A DNA stretch of 64,000 nucleotides from an uncultured Actinomycetes bacterium (lineage in GTDB: Bacteria; Actinomycetota; Actinomycetes; UBA12327): contig CAIXNN010000036.1 in NCBI GenBank assembly GCA_903920865.1, positions 27,165 to 91,164 of the forward strand, in the 5' to 3' direction. Position numbers and translations under genes: made by a program. Below, in pieces: positions 13,850-63,474 of this stretch; the first letter of the stretch is position 1, and each line of letters starts with the position of its first letter. Below the pieces are notes generated by a model. It was not told the DNA's origin. It worked only from the letters and a program-made list of their open reading frames with translations, and searched no databases.

Positions 13850-14731
13850 ATGAAATTTCCAACGTTGCATGTGGGTCGGGGTAGCCAAGTCGGGCCTTTG
13901 ACAGTTTTCCCACTGTGGGCAAACAAGCCCGCGCCGACGAAGCGCTTTTTCAGCAACAAGTCAGGGTCCTTGGCGGTCGCCGAACGCGAAGGCGCACCGG
14001 TGGTTGGCGAACTAGTAGTGAGCAACAACAGTGACGCGCCGGTTCTGCTGTTGGCTGGCGATTTACTTGAGGGTGGTTGGCAGCATCGTGTGATTTCCGA
14101 GCCAGTGCTCATCGCGGCCGGTGCATCAGAAGTAGTCAATGTCAATTGCGTCGAACGTGGTCGTTGGTCTGGTGCCGGGGAGCAGATCAACCGTGGACGT
14201 AAGACTGGTCCACGCCTTCGTTCCAAACTTGAAGCGTATGAACAACTCAAGCAACAAGAAGTCTGGGCAGAAGTTGATCGTTTTTCCACCTCCCAATTCA
14301 CTTCCAAGACTGCCTCTTACATTGACTACTTGAACTTGGTGGAGGAGCAGGCCGTGGGTAGCGACGTACGCCCGCTCGATGGTCAAGTAGGAGTTGTTGT
14401 GGCGGCAAATGGTCACCCGGTCATGCTTGAGGTTTTCGCCACGCACGAAGATTTGGTGCAGGCCTGGGACGCGCTCATTGGCGGCGCCTTGGCAGATACT
14501 CGTGGGGTTCGCTCCGTGCGCACTCCGTCTCGACGCATCCACCGCTTCATTGACGGTTTGGAGTCCGTTGAGCTCAGCCGCAGTTCCAAAGCTGGTTTGG
14601 CCGACAAGGTGGTCGGTCAAGGTGAGGCCGAGGGCTTATTCACCTCGATTTCGTGCGTGGAATGGGATGAGGAATTGGTGCACCTGCTGGTTCTGAATCA
14701 GCGCCACGATCTGTTTGCTGACGCGATCTAA
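13850..14731 (+). CDS. Hypothetical protein (293 aa), family unknown
   Basis: ATG with strong RBS GGGAGGAG. Coding-like composition. No catalytic or binding motif I recognise; no TM segment or signal peptide. Confidence 0.6.
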   Translation: MKFPTLHVGRGSQVGPLTVFPLWANKPAPTKRFFSNKSGSLAVAEREGAPVVGELVVSNNSDAPVLLLAGDLLEGGWQHRVISEPVLIAAGASEVVNVNCVERGRWSGAGEQINRGRKTGPRLRSKLEAYEQLKQQEVWAEVDRFSTSQFTSKTASYIDYLNLVEEQAVGSDVRPLDGQVGVVVAANGHPVMLEVFATHEDLVQAWDALIGGALADTRGVRSVRTPSRRIHRFIDGLESVELSRSSKAGLADKVVGQGEAEGLFTSISCVEWDEELVHLLVLNQRHDLFADAI

Positions 14732-14769
14732 GACCCAGGTCCTAGAGTGTTTGGACAAGGGAATGGGGG

Positions 14770-15141
14770 TTGGTTGTGGGCTGGCAAATTAGGCGCTCAA
14801 AGTACTTTGGGCCATTTCGAGTTTCGCTGACCAAGCGTGGTCTTTCGGGTTCGGTTGGTATCCCAGGTTTTCGGATGTCAACAAATACCCGTGGCCAGGT
14901 GCGGCGAACTGTTCGCATTCCTGGAACTGGTATTTACAACACCAAAATTCTGAACCCCAAAAGCTCTTCGAGTGCGGCCCGAAAGTCCAAGGCGCCAAAA
15001 AGGGCACCTGCCACTGCCACGCAGGCACACCCCGAACAACCACCACCGCCATCGGCACCAGCCAGTTGGTATCCAGATCCGCAGGGGGTTGCCACCTGGC
15101 GCTGGTGGGATGGCCAGGTCTGGACTCAGCACACGGCCTAA
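14770..15141 (+). CDS. DUF4236-like N-terminal domain fused to a DUF2510-like C-terminal motif
   Basis: TTG/GTG start region 14770-14776. N-terminus RRSKYFGPFRVSLTKRGLSGSVGIPGFRMSTNTRG...IPGTGIYNT fits the DUF4236 pattern. C-terminus WYPDPQGVATWRWWDGQVWT is the DUF2510 motif. A Pro/Lys-rich linker separates them. Confidence 0.65.
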   Translation: MVVGWQIRRSKYFGPFRVSLTKRGLSGSVGIPGFRMSTNTRGQVRRTVRIPGTGIYNTKILNPKSSSSAARKSKAPKRAPATATQAHPEQPPPPSAPASWYPDPQGVATWRWWDGQVWTQHTA

Positions 15142-15276
15142 AGAAACTCCTGTGCTGTCGGACCCTTGTTCTATAGTTGCAAACAGGTTATGAGTGAGCG
15201 TCGCATGTGGCCCCTTGGCCTTGTCGCTTCAGCAACCGCGCTTTCCCGCGCACGGTGCTTCCAAGGGTTAAACCGG

Positions 15277-15302
15277 CCGGGGAAGCCAATTGGCTTCCCC
15301 GG
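15277..15302. promoter_or_regulatory. Perfect 26-bp palindrome CCGGGGAAGCCAATTGGCTTCCCCGG; a second hairpin follows at 15309-15330
   Basis: Reverse complement is identical to the forward sequence. It lies 48 nt upstream of the phosphatase ATG and 135 nt downstream of the preceding stop. The next hairpin is GGGTTTTCTGCTGTGAAAACCC. Confidence 0.5.
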
Positions 15303-15350
15303 AAGCGCGGGTTTTCTGCTGTGAAAACCCTGATCGAAAGTTGATTTGTT

Positions 15351-15887
15351 ATGTCATCTGATGATGCTTTAGATGGTTTGTCCCCGCAATGGGTCGGCGC
15401 TGAAGACCTGGAATGGCTGCCTCATGAGATCTTGCCGAATCTGTTTATGGGCGGCACCGGTGATCTTGATGTGGTCACGGTTCCTAAGGACAATCCGGAC
15501 CTTATCGCCAATCATGGCTTTGACGCGGTGGTGACTTTGTATGCGCGAGCTCAACCGGTTGGCTGGGGAGTGGTGGAGCATCGTTTTGGTTTTCCCGATT
15601 CAATGCTCGCTCCCAAGGACAAGGGTCGAATCATTCAAGCTGCTCGCTGGACTCATGAACGTTGGAGTTCAGGCGATCGTGTCTTGGTTCGCTGTCAGGC
15701 GGGTTTGAATCGTTCGGGATTGGTCTTAGCTCTTGCATTGATGATCGAGGGATACACGGCCCAGGATGCAATCGAGTTGCTACGCCAACAGCGTTCGGAG
15801 TTCGTGCTGTGCAATCGCCAATTTGAACGCTGGGTGCAGACCGACGCACATGCTGACCTCTTTGGACAGGATGCGGACGGTGAGTGA
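15351..15887 (+). CDS. Small dual-specificity/tyrosine-type protein phosphatase (CX5R)
   Basis: 178 aa. The active-site P-loop VRCQAGLNRSG is C-X5-R followed by S/G. A candidate general-acid Asp sits in GFPDSM ~36 residues upstream of the Cys. Confidence 0.7.
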   Translation: MSSDDALDGLSPQWVGAEDLEWLPHEILPNLFMGGTGDLDVVTVPKDNPDLIANHGFDAVVTLYARAQPVGWGVVEHRFGFPDSMLAPKDKGRIIQAARWTHERWSSGDRVLVRCQAGLNRSGLVLALALMIEGYTAQDAIELLRQQRSEFVLCNRQFERWVQTDAHADLFGQDADGE

Positions 15888-16254
15888 AGTTTTGACGAAC
15901 TGTCGAGTCCATGGGGCGGGGCACTTCGGACACATGATGCACGAGTGGAAGGTGGTGGGGCCACTTACTGCCAAGCCCCTGCACAAGCGTGGTGTTGAAG
16001 TGCTCTGCCTTGAGGTGGTCGATGTGGTCAGCGACGAAAAAGGGGAATTCGCCATCGTCGAACTCGAGCGCATCGACGGCAAGCTCTTTGCTGGCTTTAC
16101 CCATCGGCCGGCGGACTTGATCAAACACATTGAACACGGGCACCCAGCGGTGTTTAAGAAGGGGATCGGGCGCCTGTTTTTTGAAACCGAGCACTTCATG
16201 ATCTCGAAAGTTCGTGATTTTAAGGATCGTGTGCCCTGCGCCCATGACGTCTAG
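15871..16254 (+). CDS. Hypothetical His/Cys-rich protein, translationally coupled to the phosphatase
   Basis: ATG 15871 overlaps the phosphatase 3' end by 17 nt. The 127-aa product has CRVHGAGHFGHMMHEW, HIEHGH and a C-terminal CAHD, suggesting metal binding. The antisense ORF 15631-16245 has a shadow-like Arg/Pro/His composition. Confidence 0.4.
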   Translation: MRTVSEVLTNCRVHGAGHFGHMMHEWKVVGPLTAKPLHKRGVEVLCLEVVDVVSDEKGEFAIVELERIDGKLFAGFTHRPADLIKHIEHGHPAVFKKGIGRLFFETEHFMISKVRDFKDRVPCAHDV

Positions 16255-16314
16255 CCCAATAAGAATAGCGATGCCGGATAACCAGCATCGCCTTTCTTAT
16301 TAATGGGTCGGGAG

Positions 16315-16602
16315 TTATTCCTGTTCGACGTACAGCTCAACGCGGGGGATGCCAATGACTCCGATGTTGTGCATGCGCTCGCGAAGCAGCGGATCATCGC
16401 GGAAAGCGGCGGCCTGGTCGCGGTTGGCAAATGTGTGGATCGCTGCGATGGTGTTGGGCGAGCCTTCCAAGCGGTACAGGGACTTGGAAATGTAACCGTG
16501 TGCTTGACGAAGGTCCTCTGCGCTCACATAGCCGGCGTACCAGATGTCGTAATCTTCGACGTCGTGTTGGATGAAAAGTGTTGCCATGATGTGTCCGCTC
16601 AT
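16315..16602 (-). CDS. Hypothetical small protein (about 90-95 aa)
   Basis: Coding-like composition (MATLFIQHDVEDYDIWYAGYVSAEDLRQAHGY...). Convergent with the phosphatase pair. A small alpha+beta stress-protein-like fold is a guess only. Confidence 0.4.
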   Translation of the reverse strand: MSGHIMATLFIQHDVEDYDIWYAGYVSAEDLRQAHGYISKSLYRLEGSPNTIAAIHTFANRDQAAAFRDDPLLRERMHNIGVIGIPRVELYVEQE

Positions 16603-16671
16603 TGCGATAGGAAATGTTGCGAACTTTCAACGTATCGGCAATAGGTTGCAGGCGAGGGTAAACACTTACTT

Positions 16672-16749
16672 TGGTGGGCGATACAGGACTTGAACCTGTG
16701 ACCTCTTCCGTGTCAGGGAAGCGCGCTAGCCAGACTGCGCCAATCGCCC
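16672..16749 (-). tRNA. tRNA-Val (anticodon GAC), CCA encoded
   Basis: Cloverleaf read by hand: acceptor GGGCGAU/AUCGCCC, anticodon stem-loop CUUCC-CUGACAC-GGAAG, T-arm GGUUCAAGUCC, discriminator A plus CCA. Confidence 0.85.
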
Positions 16750-36147: not shown

Positions 36148-36746
36148 GTCCGGTCATTGGAGTTCTCGCACTCCAAGGTGATGTAGCAGAACACATTCGC
36201 GCGGTAGCAAGTCTTGGCGAAAGTGTTCGCGAAGTACGCACCCCCGAAGAACTTGACTCGGTTGACGCATTGATATTGCCCGGTGGTGAATCCACCACCA
36301 TTGCTCGGTTGGCGACAACCTTTTTACTCGCGGATCCAATTCGTGAGCGGATCGCCAACAACATGCCGTGCTTTGGATCCTGTGCTGGGATGATTTTGCT
36401 GGCTGATCGCATTCTTGATGGCGAAGCAGATCAAGAAACCTTTGGCGGGATGGACATCACCGTTCGTCGCAATGCCTTTGGTCGCCAAGTTGATTCATTT
36501 GAAACTCAAGTGGCAGTTGAGGGCATTGCGGGGGAGAAGGTGCATGCAGTCTTCATCCGTGCCCCCTGGATTGAGGCCATTGGACCCAAGGTTGAAGTCC
36601 TCGCCACGGTCTCAGATGGGCCGGCCGAGGGTAGGATTGTGGCTGCATCGCAAGGCGCGTTGATGGTGTGTAGCTTCCATCCAGAGCTGACCACCGATAC
36701 GAGACTTCATGAACTTTTTGTACGCAGGGTGAAGGGGCAGTCATGA
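36144..36746 (+). CDS. pdxT: Pyridoxal 5'-phosphate synthase glutaminase subunit
   Basis: [10 protein letters not shown]...[10 protein letters not shown]...[10 protein letters not shown]...HPE is a class I glutamine amidotransferase triad context. 4-nt overlap with pdxS. Confidence 0.9.
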
Positions 36747-37495
36747 GTGGCCATTCCAAATGGGCGACAACCAAACACAAGAAGGCAGTTGTCGATGCCA
36801 AGCGCAGCAAGCTATTCGCGAAGTTAATTAAGAACATTGAGGTTGCGGTTCGCGTGGGTGGTCCAGACATCAATGGCAACCCGACCTTGTATGACGCGGT
36901 TCAAAAGGCCAAGAAGAATTCGGTTCCTAACGACAACATTGATCGAGCACTCAAGCGTGGATCCGGCGTTGAGGCAGGTGGTGCTGAATGGCAAACCATC
37001 ATGTATGAGGGATACGGACCCAACGGTGTTGCTGTTCTCATCGAGTGCCTTACCGATAATCGCAATCGTGCGGCCTCCGATGTTCGGGTCGCCATGACTC
37101 GTAACGGTGGATCGATGGCCGACCCTGGCTCGGTGTCCTACTTGTTCAATCGCAAGGGCGTGGTCATCGTTCCCAAAGAATCGCTAAGCGAAGACGACAT
37201 TTTGCTGGCTGTCCTTGACGCCGGCGCGGAGGAAGTCGTTGACCTTGGCGATCAGTATGAAGTCATTTCAGAGGCAAGCGATCTGGTGGCGGTGCGTACC
37301 GCGCTAGTCAATGCCGGCATTGACTACGACTCGGCAGATCCCACCTTCCTGCCCTCGGTGAGCATCGAGCTGGATGAGGACGGTGCTAGGCAGATCTTCC
37401 GCCTGATTGATGCCCTTGAGGACAGCGACGATGTCCAGAACGTTTGGGCCAATTTTGACGTGTCGGATGAGGTACTTGAGGCCGCGGCAGGCTAA
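36743..37495 (+). CDS. yebC: YebC/PmpR-family transcriptional regulator
   Basis: [40 protein letters not shown] is the highly conserved YebC N-terminus. Confidence 0.9.
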
Positions 37496-60007: not shown

Positions 60008-61426
60008 GTGGAGATTAGCGGGTTTGTACCACCTGACACTGACACTGACACTGATACTGACACCCAAGCTTGGGCTGCGCCTACTGATGACTTTTTCGCA
60101 GGTGCACCGATAGCTCATGATCGTTTCGCTCCAGCCAGCGCTGGTGCGCCGGCCGCTTCCCTTGCTCCTGTTGTCACGCCAGCGATGGTTACGCACGTTG
60201 CTCCTGCGCCGCAGACGGCGCCTGAGATTCCCCTGGTGGAACCAGAACTGCCTAAGCCGCCGGTTGCGCTCGAGCCGGCCCCGGCCGATCAGGTCAGCGT
60301 TGAGCCCACCTTTAGCGAGGAATACCGCCGTGCCACGACCGAAAAGGAAGCGGCTGAAGAAGATCTGAATCTTCAAGACCTGCTCGTTGAAGTCTTAACT
60401 GCAGGCGCTTCAGACCTGCACCTGACCATTGGGTCTCGCCCTGTTGTTCGCCTACGCGGAGACCTGGTCCCGTTGGAGCACTACCCGGTGTTGTCCGCAG
60501 CCGTTATCCAGCGCGTTATGTATGCCGCCATCACTCAGCGTCAGCGCGAAAAATTTGAGCGCGAGCTTGAATTGGACTTTGCCTACTCGGTTCCTGGGCG
60601 CGCTCGATTCAGGGTGAACCTGTACCGCCAACGTGATGCGCTCGGTGCCGCCTTCCGATTGATCCCTTTTGAGATCAAGTCCCTTGAAACCTTAGGTGTG
60701 CCGGCAGCGGTTTCTAACTTTGCGATGCTGCCTCGGGGGTTCGTTTTGGTCACCGGACCAACGGGTTCGGGCAAATCAACAACCTTGGCTGCCTTGATCG
60801 ACTTGGCCAATCGGAACCGACGCGACCACATTTTGACCGTTGAGGACCCGATTGAATTCCTCCACGGACACCAGAACAGCATCGTGAATCAACGTGAAGT
60901 TGGCGAAGACACTCACAGTTTCACCGATGCCCTCAAGCACGCCTTGCGCCAAGACCCCGACATCATCATGGTCGGCGAAATGCGTGACCTTGAGACGATC
61001 TCCGTGGCCTTGACCGCTGCCGAGACCGGCCACTTGGTCTTTGCCACTTTGCACACCCAAGATGCGGCCCAGACCATCGACCGTGTCATCGACGTTTTCC
61101 CACCGCACCAGCAGCAACAGGTGCGGGTCCAGCTCGCTGGCGCCCTCCAGGGCGTGGTCTGCCAGAACTTGGCTAAAACCAAGGACGGCGAAGGCCGAGT
61201 AGCCGCGACGGAAGTTTTAGTGGCCACCCCCGCGATCAGGAACTCGATTCGTGAAGGAAAGACCCACCAGATCTATTCGGCGATGCAAGCTGGTGCCCAA
61301 TATGGCATGCACACGATGGATCAACACCTCGCCGAGTTAGTCAATAACGGACAGGTCGCGTATTCAGTCGGACTTGAAAAGTGTCACCACGTCGATGACT
61401 TCAACCGTTTGACCGGACGCGGGTGA
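60008..61426 (+). CDS. pilT: Twitching-motility (retraction) ATPase PilT with ~120-aa low-complexity N-terminal extension
   Basis: GTG 60008 lies 6 nt downstream of AGGAGG. The PilT core runs from DLLVEVLTAGASDLHLTIGSRP (Walker A GPTGSGKST, AIRNSIREGKTHQI). The preceding ~120 aa are Pro/Ala-rich with PPDTDTDTDTDTQ. Confidence 0.85.
   Translation: MEISGFVPPDTDTDTDTDTQAWAAPTDDFFAGAPIAHDRFAPASAGAPAASLAPVVTPAMVTHVAPAPQTAPEIPLVEPELPKPPVALEPAPADQVSVEPTFSEEYRRATTEKEAAEEDLNLQDLLVEVLTAGASDLHLTIGSRPVVRLRGDLVPLEHYPVLSAAVIQRVMYAAITQRQREKFERELELDFAYSVPGRARFRVNLYRQRDALGAAFRLIPFEIKSLETLGVPAAVSNFAMLPRGFVLVTGPTGSGKSTTLAALIDLANRNRRDHILTVEDPIEFLHGHQNSIVNQREVGEDTHSFTDALKHALRQDPDIIMVGEMRDLETISVALTAAETGHLVFATLHTQDAAQTIDRVIDVFPPHQQQQVRVQLAGALQGVVCQNLAKTKDGEGRVAATEVLVATPAIRNSIREGKTHQIYSAMQAGAQYGMHTMDQHLAELVNNGQVAYSVGLEKCHHVDDFNRLTGRG
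60035..60064 (+). repeat. Hexanucleotide tandem repeat (GACACT)x5, in-frame in pilT, encoding (DT)5
   Basis: The units read GACACT GACACT GACACT GATACT GACACC. In-frame, so copy-number change would alter repeat length without a frameshift. Confidence 0.8.
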
Positions 61427-62655
61427 TTGTGATGTCAACTGTTACCACTTTTCAATATTCGGTACGTGACCGATCCGGCAAACTAGTTCAGGGACAAATT
61501 GACGCCGATTCGCCCACGGCCGTTGCGACCAAGTTGAAGTCCATGGGCTATGCACCCTTGAGCATTACCGCCTTTAACCCGGGTATGAAGCGTGAACTCT
61601 CGCTGCCGAAGTTGGGTTCAAAGGTCAAGCTCAAAGACTTGGCGATCATGTCTCGTCAGTTCGCCACCATGATCAATGCCGGACTTTCTTTGCTACGTGC
61701 GCTGGTGATCTTGTCTCAGCAAACTGAGAACAAGGAGCTGGCAAAGGTGCTGACCAGTATCAGCTCGGATGTCGAAGAAGGACACTCGCTGTCGGCCTCC
61801 TTGGCCAAGCACCCACGGATCTTCCCGCCGCTGATGGTCAACATGTGCCGGGCCGGTGAGGTCGGTGGATTCCTGGATTCAGTGCTGCTCCAGATCGCTG
61901 AGAACTACGAAGCAGAGGTCAAACTTAAGGGCAAAATCAAGTCCGCGATGACCTATCCGGTGGTTGTTTTTGTGATGGCCATGCTTGCCGTGGTGGGAAT
62001 GCTCCTGTTTATCGTGCCCGTGTTTGCCAAGATGTTTACCTCCCTGGGTGGCGAACTGCCTGCTCCCACGAAAGTTCTGATTTTCCTTTCTACGGTCTTG
62101 AAGTACGGCACGCCGTTTTTCATTGTCTTCGGCGTTGCAGGTTTTGTTGTGTGGAATCGGGTCAAGCACACCGAGCAGGTACGCGGTTTCATTGATCCGC
62201 TGAAGCTGCGCATTCCTGTCTTTGGCGATCTATTCGCCAAGATCGCCTTAAGTAGATTTGCTCGAAACTTGGGGACCATGATGAGTTCAGGTGTTCCCAT
62301 TTTGCAGTCGCTGGACATCGTGGCCGAAACCACCGGGAACTCCGTTGTGGGTAAAGCCGTATTAGAGGTTCAAGAGTCGGTTCGTCAAGGTGAGTCCATG
62401 ACTGCGCCGCTGTCTCGGCACCCGGTGTTCCCACCGATGCTGGTGCAGATGATGGCCGTGGGTGAAGACACTGGAGCCCTTGACGTGATGCTGCACAAGA
62501 TCTCGGAGTTCTACGATCAAGAGGTCGAAGCCACCACTGAATCCCTCACAGCGCTGATTGAGCCGCTCATGATCGGATTCCTCGGTGGCATCGTGGGGGC
62601 CATGATCATCGCCCTGTACATGCCGATCTTTAAGATCTTCGATCTCATCAAATAG
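61423..62655 (+). CDS. pilC: Type IV pilus inner-membrane platform protein PilC / GspF family
   Basis: 410 aa. Two GspF repeats, each followed by TM helices. 4-nt overlap with pilT. Confidence 0.85.
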   Translation: MIVMSTVTTFQYSVRDRSGKLVQGQIDADSPTAVATKLKSMGYAPLSITAFNPGMKRELSLPKLGSKVKLKDLAIMSRQFATMINAGLSLLRALVILSQQTENKELAKVLTSISSDVEEGHSLSASLAKHPRIFPPLMVNMCRAGEVGGFLDSVLLQIAENYEAEVKLKGKIKSAMTYPVVVFVMAMLAVVGMLLFIVPVFAKMFTSLGGELPAPTKVLIFLSTVLKYGTPFFIVFGVAGFVVWNRVKHTEQVRGFIDPLKLRIPVFGDLFAKIALSRFARNLGTMMSSGVPILQSLDIVAETTGNSVVGKAVLEVQESVRQGESMTAPLSRHPVFPPMLVQMMAVGEDTGALDVMLHKISEFYDQEVEATTESLTALIEPLMIGFLGGIVGAMIIALYMPIFKIFDLIK

Positions 62656-62737: not shown

Positions 62738-63048
62738 GACCAATTTAAGGCCGGCTTCGTGGCCACTTTTGTGCCTGCAGGGCCCGATTTTCGTGCCTAG
62801 CGGCTCGGATCGGGAAAATTTCTCAAAAAACTTGTGAAAAAGCACTCAAGGTTTTCACCCAACTGGGCGAAGTAATACCTGTCAGTGAGCTACCCGGCCA
62901 GAAAGGGCACACCCACCGAGAGGTGGGGTCGCAAAGCCAGGGGACCGCACCCGCGGTCAGCCCAGCTACCTCGGTTGGTACTTCGAAAGAAGCACCGGTG
63001 GGGACCAGAAGCCGAAGCTCTAGGTTCACCCAGAAAGGGACCATCCCG

Positions 63049-63474
63049 ATGCTCGCTCGCATCCGCAAGTCCATGGAGGAGAAGGACCAGGGCTTTACCC
63101 TGATCGAGCTCCTGGTGGTCATCATCATCATTGGCATCCTTGCCGCTATCGCAATTCCCGTCTTCCTCAATCAGCGCAAGAAGGCAACTGAAGCATCAAT
63201 GAAGGCAGACCTTCGTTCAGTTGCTAATGAGATGGAGACCTACTTCGTCGATAACCAGGCATATCCAGTTCCTGCTCAAGCAGCTGCAGGTGCCTCAGTC
63301 ACAGTGGGTACAACCACTGTCAAGGTGTCTTCACCTAACACCGTCGTCGCAAATCAGACCGGCACTGGCGTCGTCGCCGGTACCTACTGCCTCAAGGCCA
63401 CCAACAGTGGAGCCAGCGGTACGTGGTACTACGACAGCGACGGTGGAGGAATTAACAACACCGGTTGCGTCTGA
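63049..63474 (+). CDS. Type IV pilin (prepilin with class III signal peptide), probable major pilin
   Basis: The ORF is open from 62923; the start is taken at ATG 63049 after AAAGGGA. Leader MLARIRKSMEEKDQG, then FTLIELLVVIIIIGILAAIAIP (G-1/F+1/E+5). Cys pair in GTYCL...NTGCV. C-terminus TWYYDSDGGG. Confidence 0.8.
   Translation: MLARIRKSMEEKDQGFTLIELLVVIIIIGILAAIAIPVFLNQRKKATEASMKADLRSVANEMETYFVDNQAYPVPAQAAAGASVTVGTTTVKVSSPNTVVANQTGTGVVAGTYCLKATNSGASGTWYYDSDGGGINNTGCV

Follow-up and report, generated by a model that had tools for sequence, protein, structure and literature searches.

We describe the intergenic spacer at positions 15142-15350 of a 64,000-nt stretch of DNA (hereafter the window) from an uncultured freshwater actinobacterium (contig CAIXNN010000036.1). 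This spacer very probably holds a riboswitch of the SAM-IV class on the + strand, in the leader of a phosphatase gene and an overlapping open reading frame (ORF), with S-adenosylmethionine (SAM) as its presumed ligand. It measures 209 nt, provided that the preceding ORF (14770-15141) is a gene. The original prediction, made from the letters alone, had pointed out a perfect palindrome, a second hairpin and partial inverted repeats, and had offered three readings: a bidirectional terminator, the site of a dimeric regulator, or part of a structured RNA. The last of these is correct, as an Infernal search against Rfam recovers a full-length SAM-IV aptamer at this place. A known RNA class thereby fully explains the palindrome, the inverted repeats upstream of it and the second hairpin. 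The RNA is a new member of this class from an uncultured freshwater actinobacterium; its expression platform is atypical, and so is the gene that it would regulate.

The identification rests on a cmscan run over the whole window, in which RF00634 scored 55.5 bits (E = 4.4e-7), the gathering score being 38. The alignment covers model positions 1-116 of 116 and is therefore not truncated; a local scan confirmed it. In the clan competition of cmscan, SAM-IV outscores the other members of the Rfam clan at this locus. Also, the conserved core strings AUGAGU, GCAACC, GGUGC and AAGCGCGG are all found in the aptamer. The family fold known from a cryo-electron microscopy structure comprises two pseudoknots (PK-1 and PK-2) and a 3' hairpin named P5 (PMC6890682), and the features that had first drawn attention to the spacer can be placed in it.

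The palindrome CCGGGGAAGCCAATTGGCTTCCCCGG (15277-15302) is P5, the 3' hairpin of the aptamer. It is its own reverse complement over 26 of 26 bp, and no other perfect palindrome of the window has arms as long as its 13 bp. In 100 shuffles that preserved dinucleotides, the longest arm ranged from 6 to 11 bp (11 bp in a single shuffle), so that a chance origin is indeed unlikely. Only a single copy is present in the window with up to three mismatches allowed, and hence there is, within the window searched, no sign of a multicopy element resembling repetitive extragenic palindromes (REP) or miniature inverted-repeat transposable elements (MITE). P5 consists of a long perfect stem closed by a self-complementary 4-nt loop (AAUU), which is why it reads as a palindrome at the DNA level. 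The upstream inverted repeats are real as well: CCCTTGG (15212-15218) is complementary to CCAAGGG (15261-15267), and the two form pseudoknot PK-1 where the Rfam consensus has CCCGG...CCGGG. The 3' strand of PK-2 matches the conserved 3' tail of the model (CAAGcGcgg). Both pseudoknots are absent from the Rfam structure line, and each is complementary over its full length at the homologous positions. A local GGCC...GGCC repeat corresponds to P2b. The description of the spacer as GC-rich applies to its aptamer part only (63% GC), since the full spacer has 55.0% GC and the window 56.0%.

The fourth pair of P1 is U-A in the window and C-G in the consensus, both sides having changed, while the linker from PK-1 to P1 reads UUA instead of uGAa. 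The positions that we take to be the ligand contacts of the SAM-I crystal structure map to U15188, G15192, C15233, A15234, U15256, G15257 and A15272; all are present and lie in strings conserved in the model. Plain minimum free energy folding of the spacer and RNAalifold on eight orthologous leaders find P2, P3, P5 and the second hairpin (H2), though neither can model pseudoknots. Both methods also mis-pair P1 with UGAUC (15331-35). This helix of 5 bp, two of them G-U, covaries only partly (UG in three leaders, AU in two, broken in three) and was judged too weak.

For the SAM-IV riboswitch, Weinberg et al. 2008 is reportedly the source. The window RNA shares with this class P1, P2a/P2b with the internal loop, P3, P5, PK-1 and PK-2 in a full-length match above the gathering score, and in addition the actinobacterial host and a place in the 5' leader of a gene read from the same strand. 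It differs by a PK-1 of 7 bp (5 in the consensus), by the unusually long perfect stem of P5, by an extra 22-nt hairpin between PK-2 and the ribosome-binding site, and by the genes that follow it, one for a dual-specificity phosphatase and the other an orphan ORF. With SAM-I (RF00162, clan CL00012) it has the AUGAG, GCAACC and GGUGC core, P1 to P3 and PK-1 in common, and SAM-I and SAM-IV possess a common binding pocket (PMC6890682). However, SAM-I carries a P4 helix between P3 and the 3' strand of P1 and has neither PK-2 nor P5 (PMC6890682), whereas the window RNA shows the opposite: only 11 nt separate P3 from the 3' strand of P1, which leaves no room for a P4 of the SAM-I type. The SAM-I/IV variant (RF01725) resembles the window RNA in its 3' hairpin and P3-loop pseudoknot (PMC6890682), but is without the P2 internal loop and PK-1 (PMC2864571, PMC6890682), both of which are found here. 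Coordinates of all elements are given in Table 1.

Table 1. Elements of the SAM-IV leader and genes of the surrounding locus (window coordinates).
Feature	Position	Strand	Basis
SAM-IV aptamer, whole Rfam match	15186-15313	+	RF00634
P1, 4 bp, GGUU with AACC	15186-15189 / 15271-15274	+	cmscan alignment
P2a/P2b stem-loop with internal loop	15194-15230	+	cmscan alignment
PK-1, CCCUUGG (P2b loop) with CCAAGGG	15212-15218 / 15261-15267	+	7/7 complementary
P3 stem-loop with conserved GCAACC, GGUGC core	15231-15259 (15231-38 with 15253-59)	+	cmscan, invariant pairs
PK-2, CCCGCGC (P3 loop) with GCGCGGG	15245-15251 / 15305-15311	+	7/7 complementary
P5 hairpin, 11-bp stem, AAUU loop, -23.6 kcal/mol	15277-15302	+	3' hairpin of the model, fold energy
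Hairpin H2, GGGUUUUC-UGCUGU-GAAAACCC, 8-bp stem, -10.6 kcal/mol	15309-15330	+	fold
Shine-Dalgarno-like GAAAG, 10 nt before ATG	15336-15340	+	invariant in 8/8 leaders
Dual-specificity / Cys-based phosphatase gene, 178 aa	15351-15887	+	Pfam DSPc
Orphan ORF, 124 aa, GTG start	15880-16254	+	called on source contig
ARPP-1 gene, two genes upstream of phosphatase	13850-14731	+	Pfam PF20208, 182.5 bits
DUF4236/DUF2510 ORF	14770-15141	+	Pfam DUF4236 48.9 bits, DUF2510 32 bits

Conservation at orthologous loci was one of the points on which the original prediction could have failed, and here the element is conserved. Close relatives of the phosphatase (87-91% identity) occur in freshwater actinobacterial metagenome-assembled genomes (MAGs) and metagenomes, and the orthologue in a second, sister lineage shows about 88% protein identity. 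SAM-IV is found at the same position ahead of the orthologous gene in L001, L002 and L003 (48.2-51.6 bits), and likewise in L012-L015. Between the window and the sister lineage the aptamer is 0.89-0.90 identical, compared to about 0.91 for first codon positions of the flanking genes, 0.54-0.58 for third codon positions and 0.66-0.68 for the 44 nt directly upstream of P1. Among eight distinct leaders, variation is seen in 6 of 88 paired columns and in 11 of 40 unpaired columns (Fisher p = 0.003). Two of the six paired changes convert G-C to G-U, and another two make up a matched insertion by which P5 gains a pair: the sister lineage has an extra G on the 5' arm and an extra C on the 3' arm, and the helix is kept. 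The remaining changes are one A-C mismatch (in two sequences) and one that breaks the fourth P1 pair. Overall, 98% of cells are paired in the eight orthologues, against 36-53% in slid controls. The pairs of P2a are preserved in all eight leaders, PK-1 is 100% paired in the same number of sequences, and the sole change in PK-2 is from G-C to G-U. These patterns argue that the aptamer is maintained by selection.

One of these loci carries an unexpected label. L003 (CAMCVY010000097.1) belongs to a MAG named 'Bifidobacterium breve', yet it contains the same ARPP-1 / SAM-IV / phosphatase locus at about 79% DNA identity to the window. An error in binning or labelling is the probable cause.

The aptamer is read in the same direction as the phosphatase gene and ends 38 nt ahead of the ATG; an in-frame TGA (15342-15344) makes the ATG at 15351 the first possible start. 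The position of the second hairpin, six nt past the palindrome, is as first described, but the stem has 8 bp rather than 7. The H2 stem is kept in all eight leaders (a single one shows a mismatch), whereas five of its six loop columns vary, and a conserved stem with a variable loop is the signature of a functional helix. Because its GGG (15309-15311) is at the same time the end of the 3' strand of PK-2, H2 probably belongs to the expression platform. Once 15303-15311 is made unavailable, the predicted energy of 15303-15365 changes from -16.5 to -6.4 kcal/mol and H2 is predicted to shrink to five weak pairs. Further downstream, GAAAG is predicted to pair with the 3' tail of 16S rRNA and may serve as the ribosome-binding site.

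Based on this arrangement a mechanism can be proposed. Binding of SAM would stabilize the aptamer fold and lock PK-2. As PK-2 and H2 would compete for the GGG at 15309-15311, and should be partly mutually exclusive, ligand binding should melt or shorten H2, with the result that the 20 nt containing GAAAG and the ATG would be remodelled. We therefore infer a SAM-dependent remodelling of the ribosome-binding region through competition between PK-2 and H2, and control of the phosphatase unit would most likely take place at translation initiation. By analogy with known SAM riboswitches, repression of the phosphatase unit at high SAM is somewhat the likelier direction. Two other candidates were considered for this region. 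An anti-Shine-Dalgarno model, in which freed UUUUC would pair with GAAAG, is predicted for L001 (9 bp, -6.5 kcal/mol) but is weak in the window lineage, and was kept as a possibility only. A 7-codon upstream ORF starting from GTG at 15321 was rejected, as neither the GTG nor the frame is preserved in the sister lineage.

Several observations weigh against a SAM-responsive SAM-IV leader at this locus. Among the eight orthologues not a single pair has changed on both sides, the sequences being too close, and consequently the structural case rests on the Rfam model and the substitution pattern. The fourth pair of P1 is A-A or G-A in the sister lineage. At 55.5 bits the match scores below another freshwater SAM-IV (L058, 70.3 bits). 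The platform is atypical, with a 22-nt hairpin between the PK-2 strand and GAAAG, where the degenerate SAM-IV-like element of L038 has only 8 nt ahead of its Shine-Dalgarno-like sequence. The candidate UUUUC:GAAAG pairing is weak in the window lineage (-2.7 kcal/mol) and shows no conservation. No sigma-70-like promoter passed the scan of 14700-16700. The only visible -10-like element is TATAGT at 15172-15177 (TAGAGT in the sister lineage); transcription may start just past it, or may read through from the ARPP-1 and DUF4236 genes. Finally, the phosphatase is without a known link to SAM or sulfur metabolism.

The gene 3' of the spacer encodes a phosphatase. It matches Pfam DSPc with 37.8 bits against a cut-off of 33.5, its active-site motif VRCQAGLNRSG corresponds to CX5R, and a comparison of 28 homologues shows no change at C115, R121 or D83. 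The closest solved structures are small archaeal-type tyrosine phosphatases (PTPs). The first 8 nt of the 124-aa ORF overlap the end of the phosphatase gene, and the ORF is probably co-translated. Conservation at its three codon positions (0.84 / 0.92 / 0.58) is of the coding type; only 11 homologue clusters were found, all of them metagenomic and with at least 64% identity. Searches of Pfam, NCBIfam, PADLOC and PDB gave no match for this protein, and its AlphaFold model is unusable (mean predicted local distance difference test score 34.9). The controlled unit would be formed by these two genes, with the leader in a 5' or intercistronic position.

In the literature consulted, SAM riboswitches guard methionine, SAM and sulfur genes. 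SAM-IV has been reported for methionine/SAM synthesis and transport genes, for example O-acetylhomoserine sulfhydrylase in M. avium (PMC3774663; PMC4607514). The window departs from this usual location, as a DSPc phosphatase and an orphan ORF lie downstream of the aptamer; such a gene context is a common association of SAM-IV, not a structural criterion for membership. Judging from the homologues compared, the pairing of SAM-IV with this phosphatase is lineage-specific. Some 160 loci with more distant homologues, a large share of them viral, showed no SAM-IV directly upstream. These include six contigs with homologues at 47-58% identity (Demequina, Friedmanniella, MAGs), where the neighbours are VWA, sigma-70, helix-turn-helix, Nudix/NrtR and TY-chaperone genes, and the result was the same for 76 further metagenome loci and 80 loci on viral contigs. 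A covariance model of our own (R1) was built from eight near-identical leaders; it is narrow (effective number 0.97), and absence of R1 matches is weaker evidence than absence with the Rfam model. A pattern scan of the viral contigs (GGTCAAGAN{55,85}GGAAGACC) gave chance matches only, and blastn of the leader against phage genomes gave none.

The phosphatase family itself is widespread in viruses. In IMG/VR, 106 matches on viral contigs were confirmed by tblastn, of which 80 (L097-L176) were kept at 40-56% identity, and members also occur in Gordonia, Mycobacterium and Rhodococcus phages (records H1-H15; 32-47% identity). The chromosomal phosphatase of the window may thus derive from a phage gene pool. 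At two loci (L058 and L038) a SAM-IV or a degenerate copy is located no more than about 1.1 kb from a phosphatase homologue but is encoded on the other strand. The L058 element (12-127, - strand, about 1.1 kb from the homologue) is a bona fide SAM-IV that comes after a sigma-like gene and a 119-aa ORF, and the contig ends before the gene downstream of it; the hairpin at the P5 position is non-palindromic and different in sequence. Homologues of this 119-aa ORF were found in phage-like contigs without SAM-IV, which contain several C5 DNA-methylase genes and a lytic transglycosylase gene. The L038 element (1889-2005, - strand) scores 14.8 bits with R1, remains below the Rfam threshold, and is clearly related in sequence to that of L058. 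It is situated 3' of a phosphatase and histone-deacetylase-like pair and runs on the strand opposite to these genes; nothing but a 27-codon ORF follows it, and a Shine-Dalgarno-like sequence lies 8 nt after its PK-2 strand. It may be a decaying copy.

Two alternatives deny the palindrome a role in a riboswitch. It could be an intrinsic, possibly bidirectional terminator of the upstream DUF4236 gene, and the hairpin is certainly very stable (-23.6 kcal/mol) and located 136 nt past the upstream stop codon. The usual T-run is missing after the palindrome on both the + strand (AAGCGCGGG) and the - strand (CCGGTTTAACCC); some actinobacterial terminators lack such runs, which counts for this explanation. 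Nonetheless, a terminator scan of 14700-16700 was empty on the + strand, hence also between the aptamer and the ATG. Both neighbouring genes are on the + strand, so nothing needs to be terminated from the other side, and the hairpin aligns to a defined helix of the riboswitch model. We regard a terminator as extremely unlikely. A DNA site for a dimeric transcription factor controlling the phosphatase operon is extremely unlikely as well. A perfect 26-bp dyad 49 nt upstream of the start codon, with arms conserved in the sister lineage, would suit such an operator, yet the dyad is broken where the RNA is not: the centre reads AATG instead of AATT in L001, L002 and L013 (T to G in three of the five distinct sister-lineage sequences) and an arm mismatch is seen in L003 and L015, both of which an RNA hairpin tolerates. 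The same helix is non-palindromic and of different sequence in the Rfam consensus as well as in the SAM-IV of L058, no second copy exists in the 64 kb, and a riboswitch explains the whole 128-nt block rather than the 26 bp of the palindrome. For annotation purposes the terminator and operator readings can be dropped.

Two other explanations accept the SAM-IV fold and question its function. A phage-derived phosphatase cassette might have been inserted behind the SAM-IV of a former methionine gene, leaving an RNA that regulates nothing useful now. This would fit the many distant loci without SAM-IV, the abundance of the family in viral contigs and actinophages, the adjacent tRNA-Val/Cys/Gly cluster, and the degenerate element without a gene behind it in L038. 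It is at odds, however, with an aptamer that is as conserved as first codon positions while third positions differ at about 45%, and with substitutions that avoid paired positions. Decay would not give this pattern, nor the conserved H2 stem and GAAAG, and a relic thus appears highly improbable. It might also be argued that the aptamer recognizes another ligand, such as S-adenosylhomocysteine or a different adenosyl compound, which would explain the atypical, non-sulfur gene. The moderate bit score, the UUA linker and the broken fourth P1 pair of the sister lineage point in the same direction. Against this, the putative SAM-contact positions are all in place within model-conserved strings, and we consider a change of ligand very unlikely. 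SAM remains the preferred ligand and the SAM-IV riboswitch the preferred reading.

On the + strand the order of the locus is ARPP-1, DUF4236/DUF2510, riboswitch, DSPc phosphatase and 124-aa ORF, followed by a 90-aa gene and the tRNA-Val/Cys/Gly cluster, both on the - strand. Gene calls on the public source contigs do not include the DUF4236/DUF2510 ORF and leave a 620-nt gap at this place. ARPP-1 is possibly part of the same operon as the phosphatase. In Iyer et al. 2022 (PMC9503650), ARPP proteins and phosphatases of the rhodanese-phosphatase superfamily are proposed as components of ADP-ribose conflict systems. The window resembles these modules by context, as an ARPP-1 gene lies two genes upstream of a Cys-based phosphatase and one distant phosphatase homologue adjoins Nudix/NrtR and TY-chaperone genes. 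It differs in that no ADP-ribosylglycohydrolase is present among the called genes within 10 kb and PADLOC gave no match; also, the passages searched in that paper (PMC9503650) do not mention a riboswitch.

Two further features were observed elsewhere in the window. A cyclic di-GMP (c-di-GMP-I) riboswitch (RF01051; 62896-62973, + strand; 55.5 bits, gathering score 35) is found directly upstream of a type IV pilin-like ORF (GFTLIELLVVIIIIGILAAIAIP motif, frame 62923-63474), a pairing that agrees with the pilus gene associations given for this motif (PMC1950547). It is preceded by a gene for a multi-pass membrane protein of 410 aa (61423-62655), which by eye only was judged to resemble a pilus or secretion platform protein. 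In addition, a second perfect palindrome of 22 bp (TAGTCAATGCCGGCATTGACTA, 37305-37326) is contained in an ORF on the + strand (36743-37495); its 11-bp arms were reached in only one of 100 shuffles.

Summarizing, the RNA belongs to a known class and the biological interest of the locus rests wholly on the gene that this RNA precedes. The association suggests that the phosphatase and the orphan protein have targets connected with SAM or methyl-group metabolism, or else that SAM serves as a general signal for a phage-derived module. A more specific scenario, to which we can give very little credence, is that one freshwater actinobacterial lineage recruited SAM-IV so that the SAM level of the cell controls a phage-related, ARPP-1-linked Cys-phosphatase module. 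If this were true and the element worked as an OFF switch, the phosphatase module would be de-repressed by a fall in SAM. Such a fall might result from starvation or, more speculatively, from SAM-degrading phage enzymes, and the riboswitch would then sense infection or stress on behalf of a conflict-type system instead of forming a feedback loop for methionine synthesis. Unusual gene associations of known riboswitches have previously pointed to new enzyme functions. For this reason the phosphatase and the 124-aa protein are reasonable targets for follow-up.

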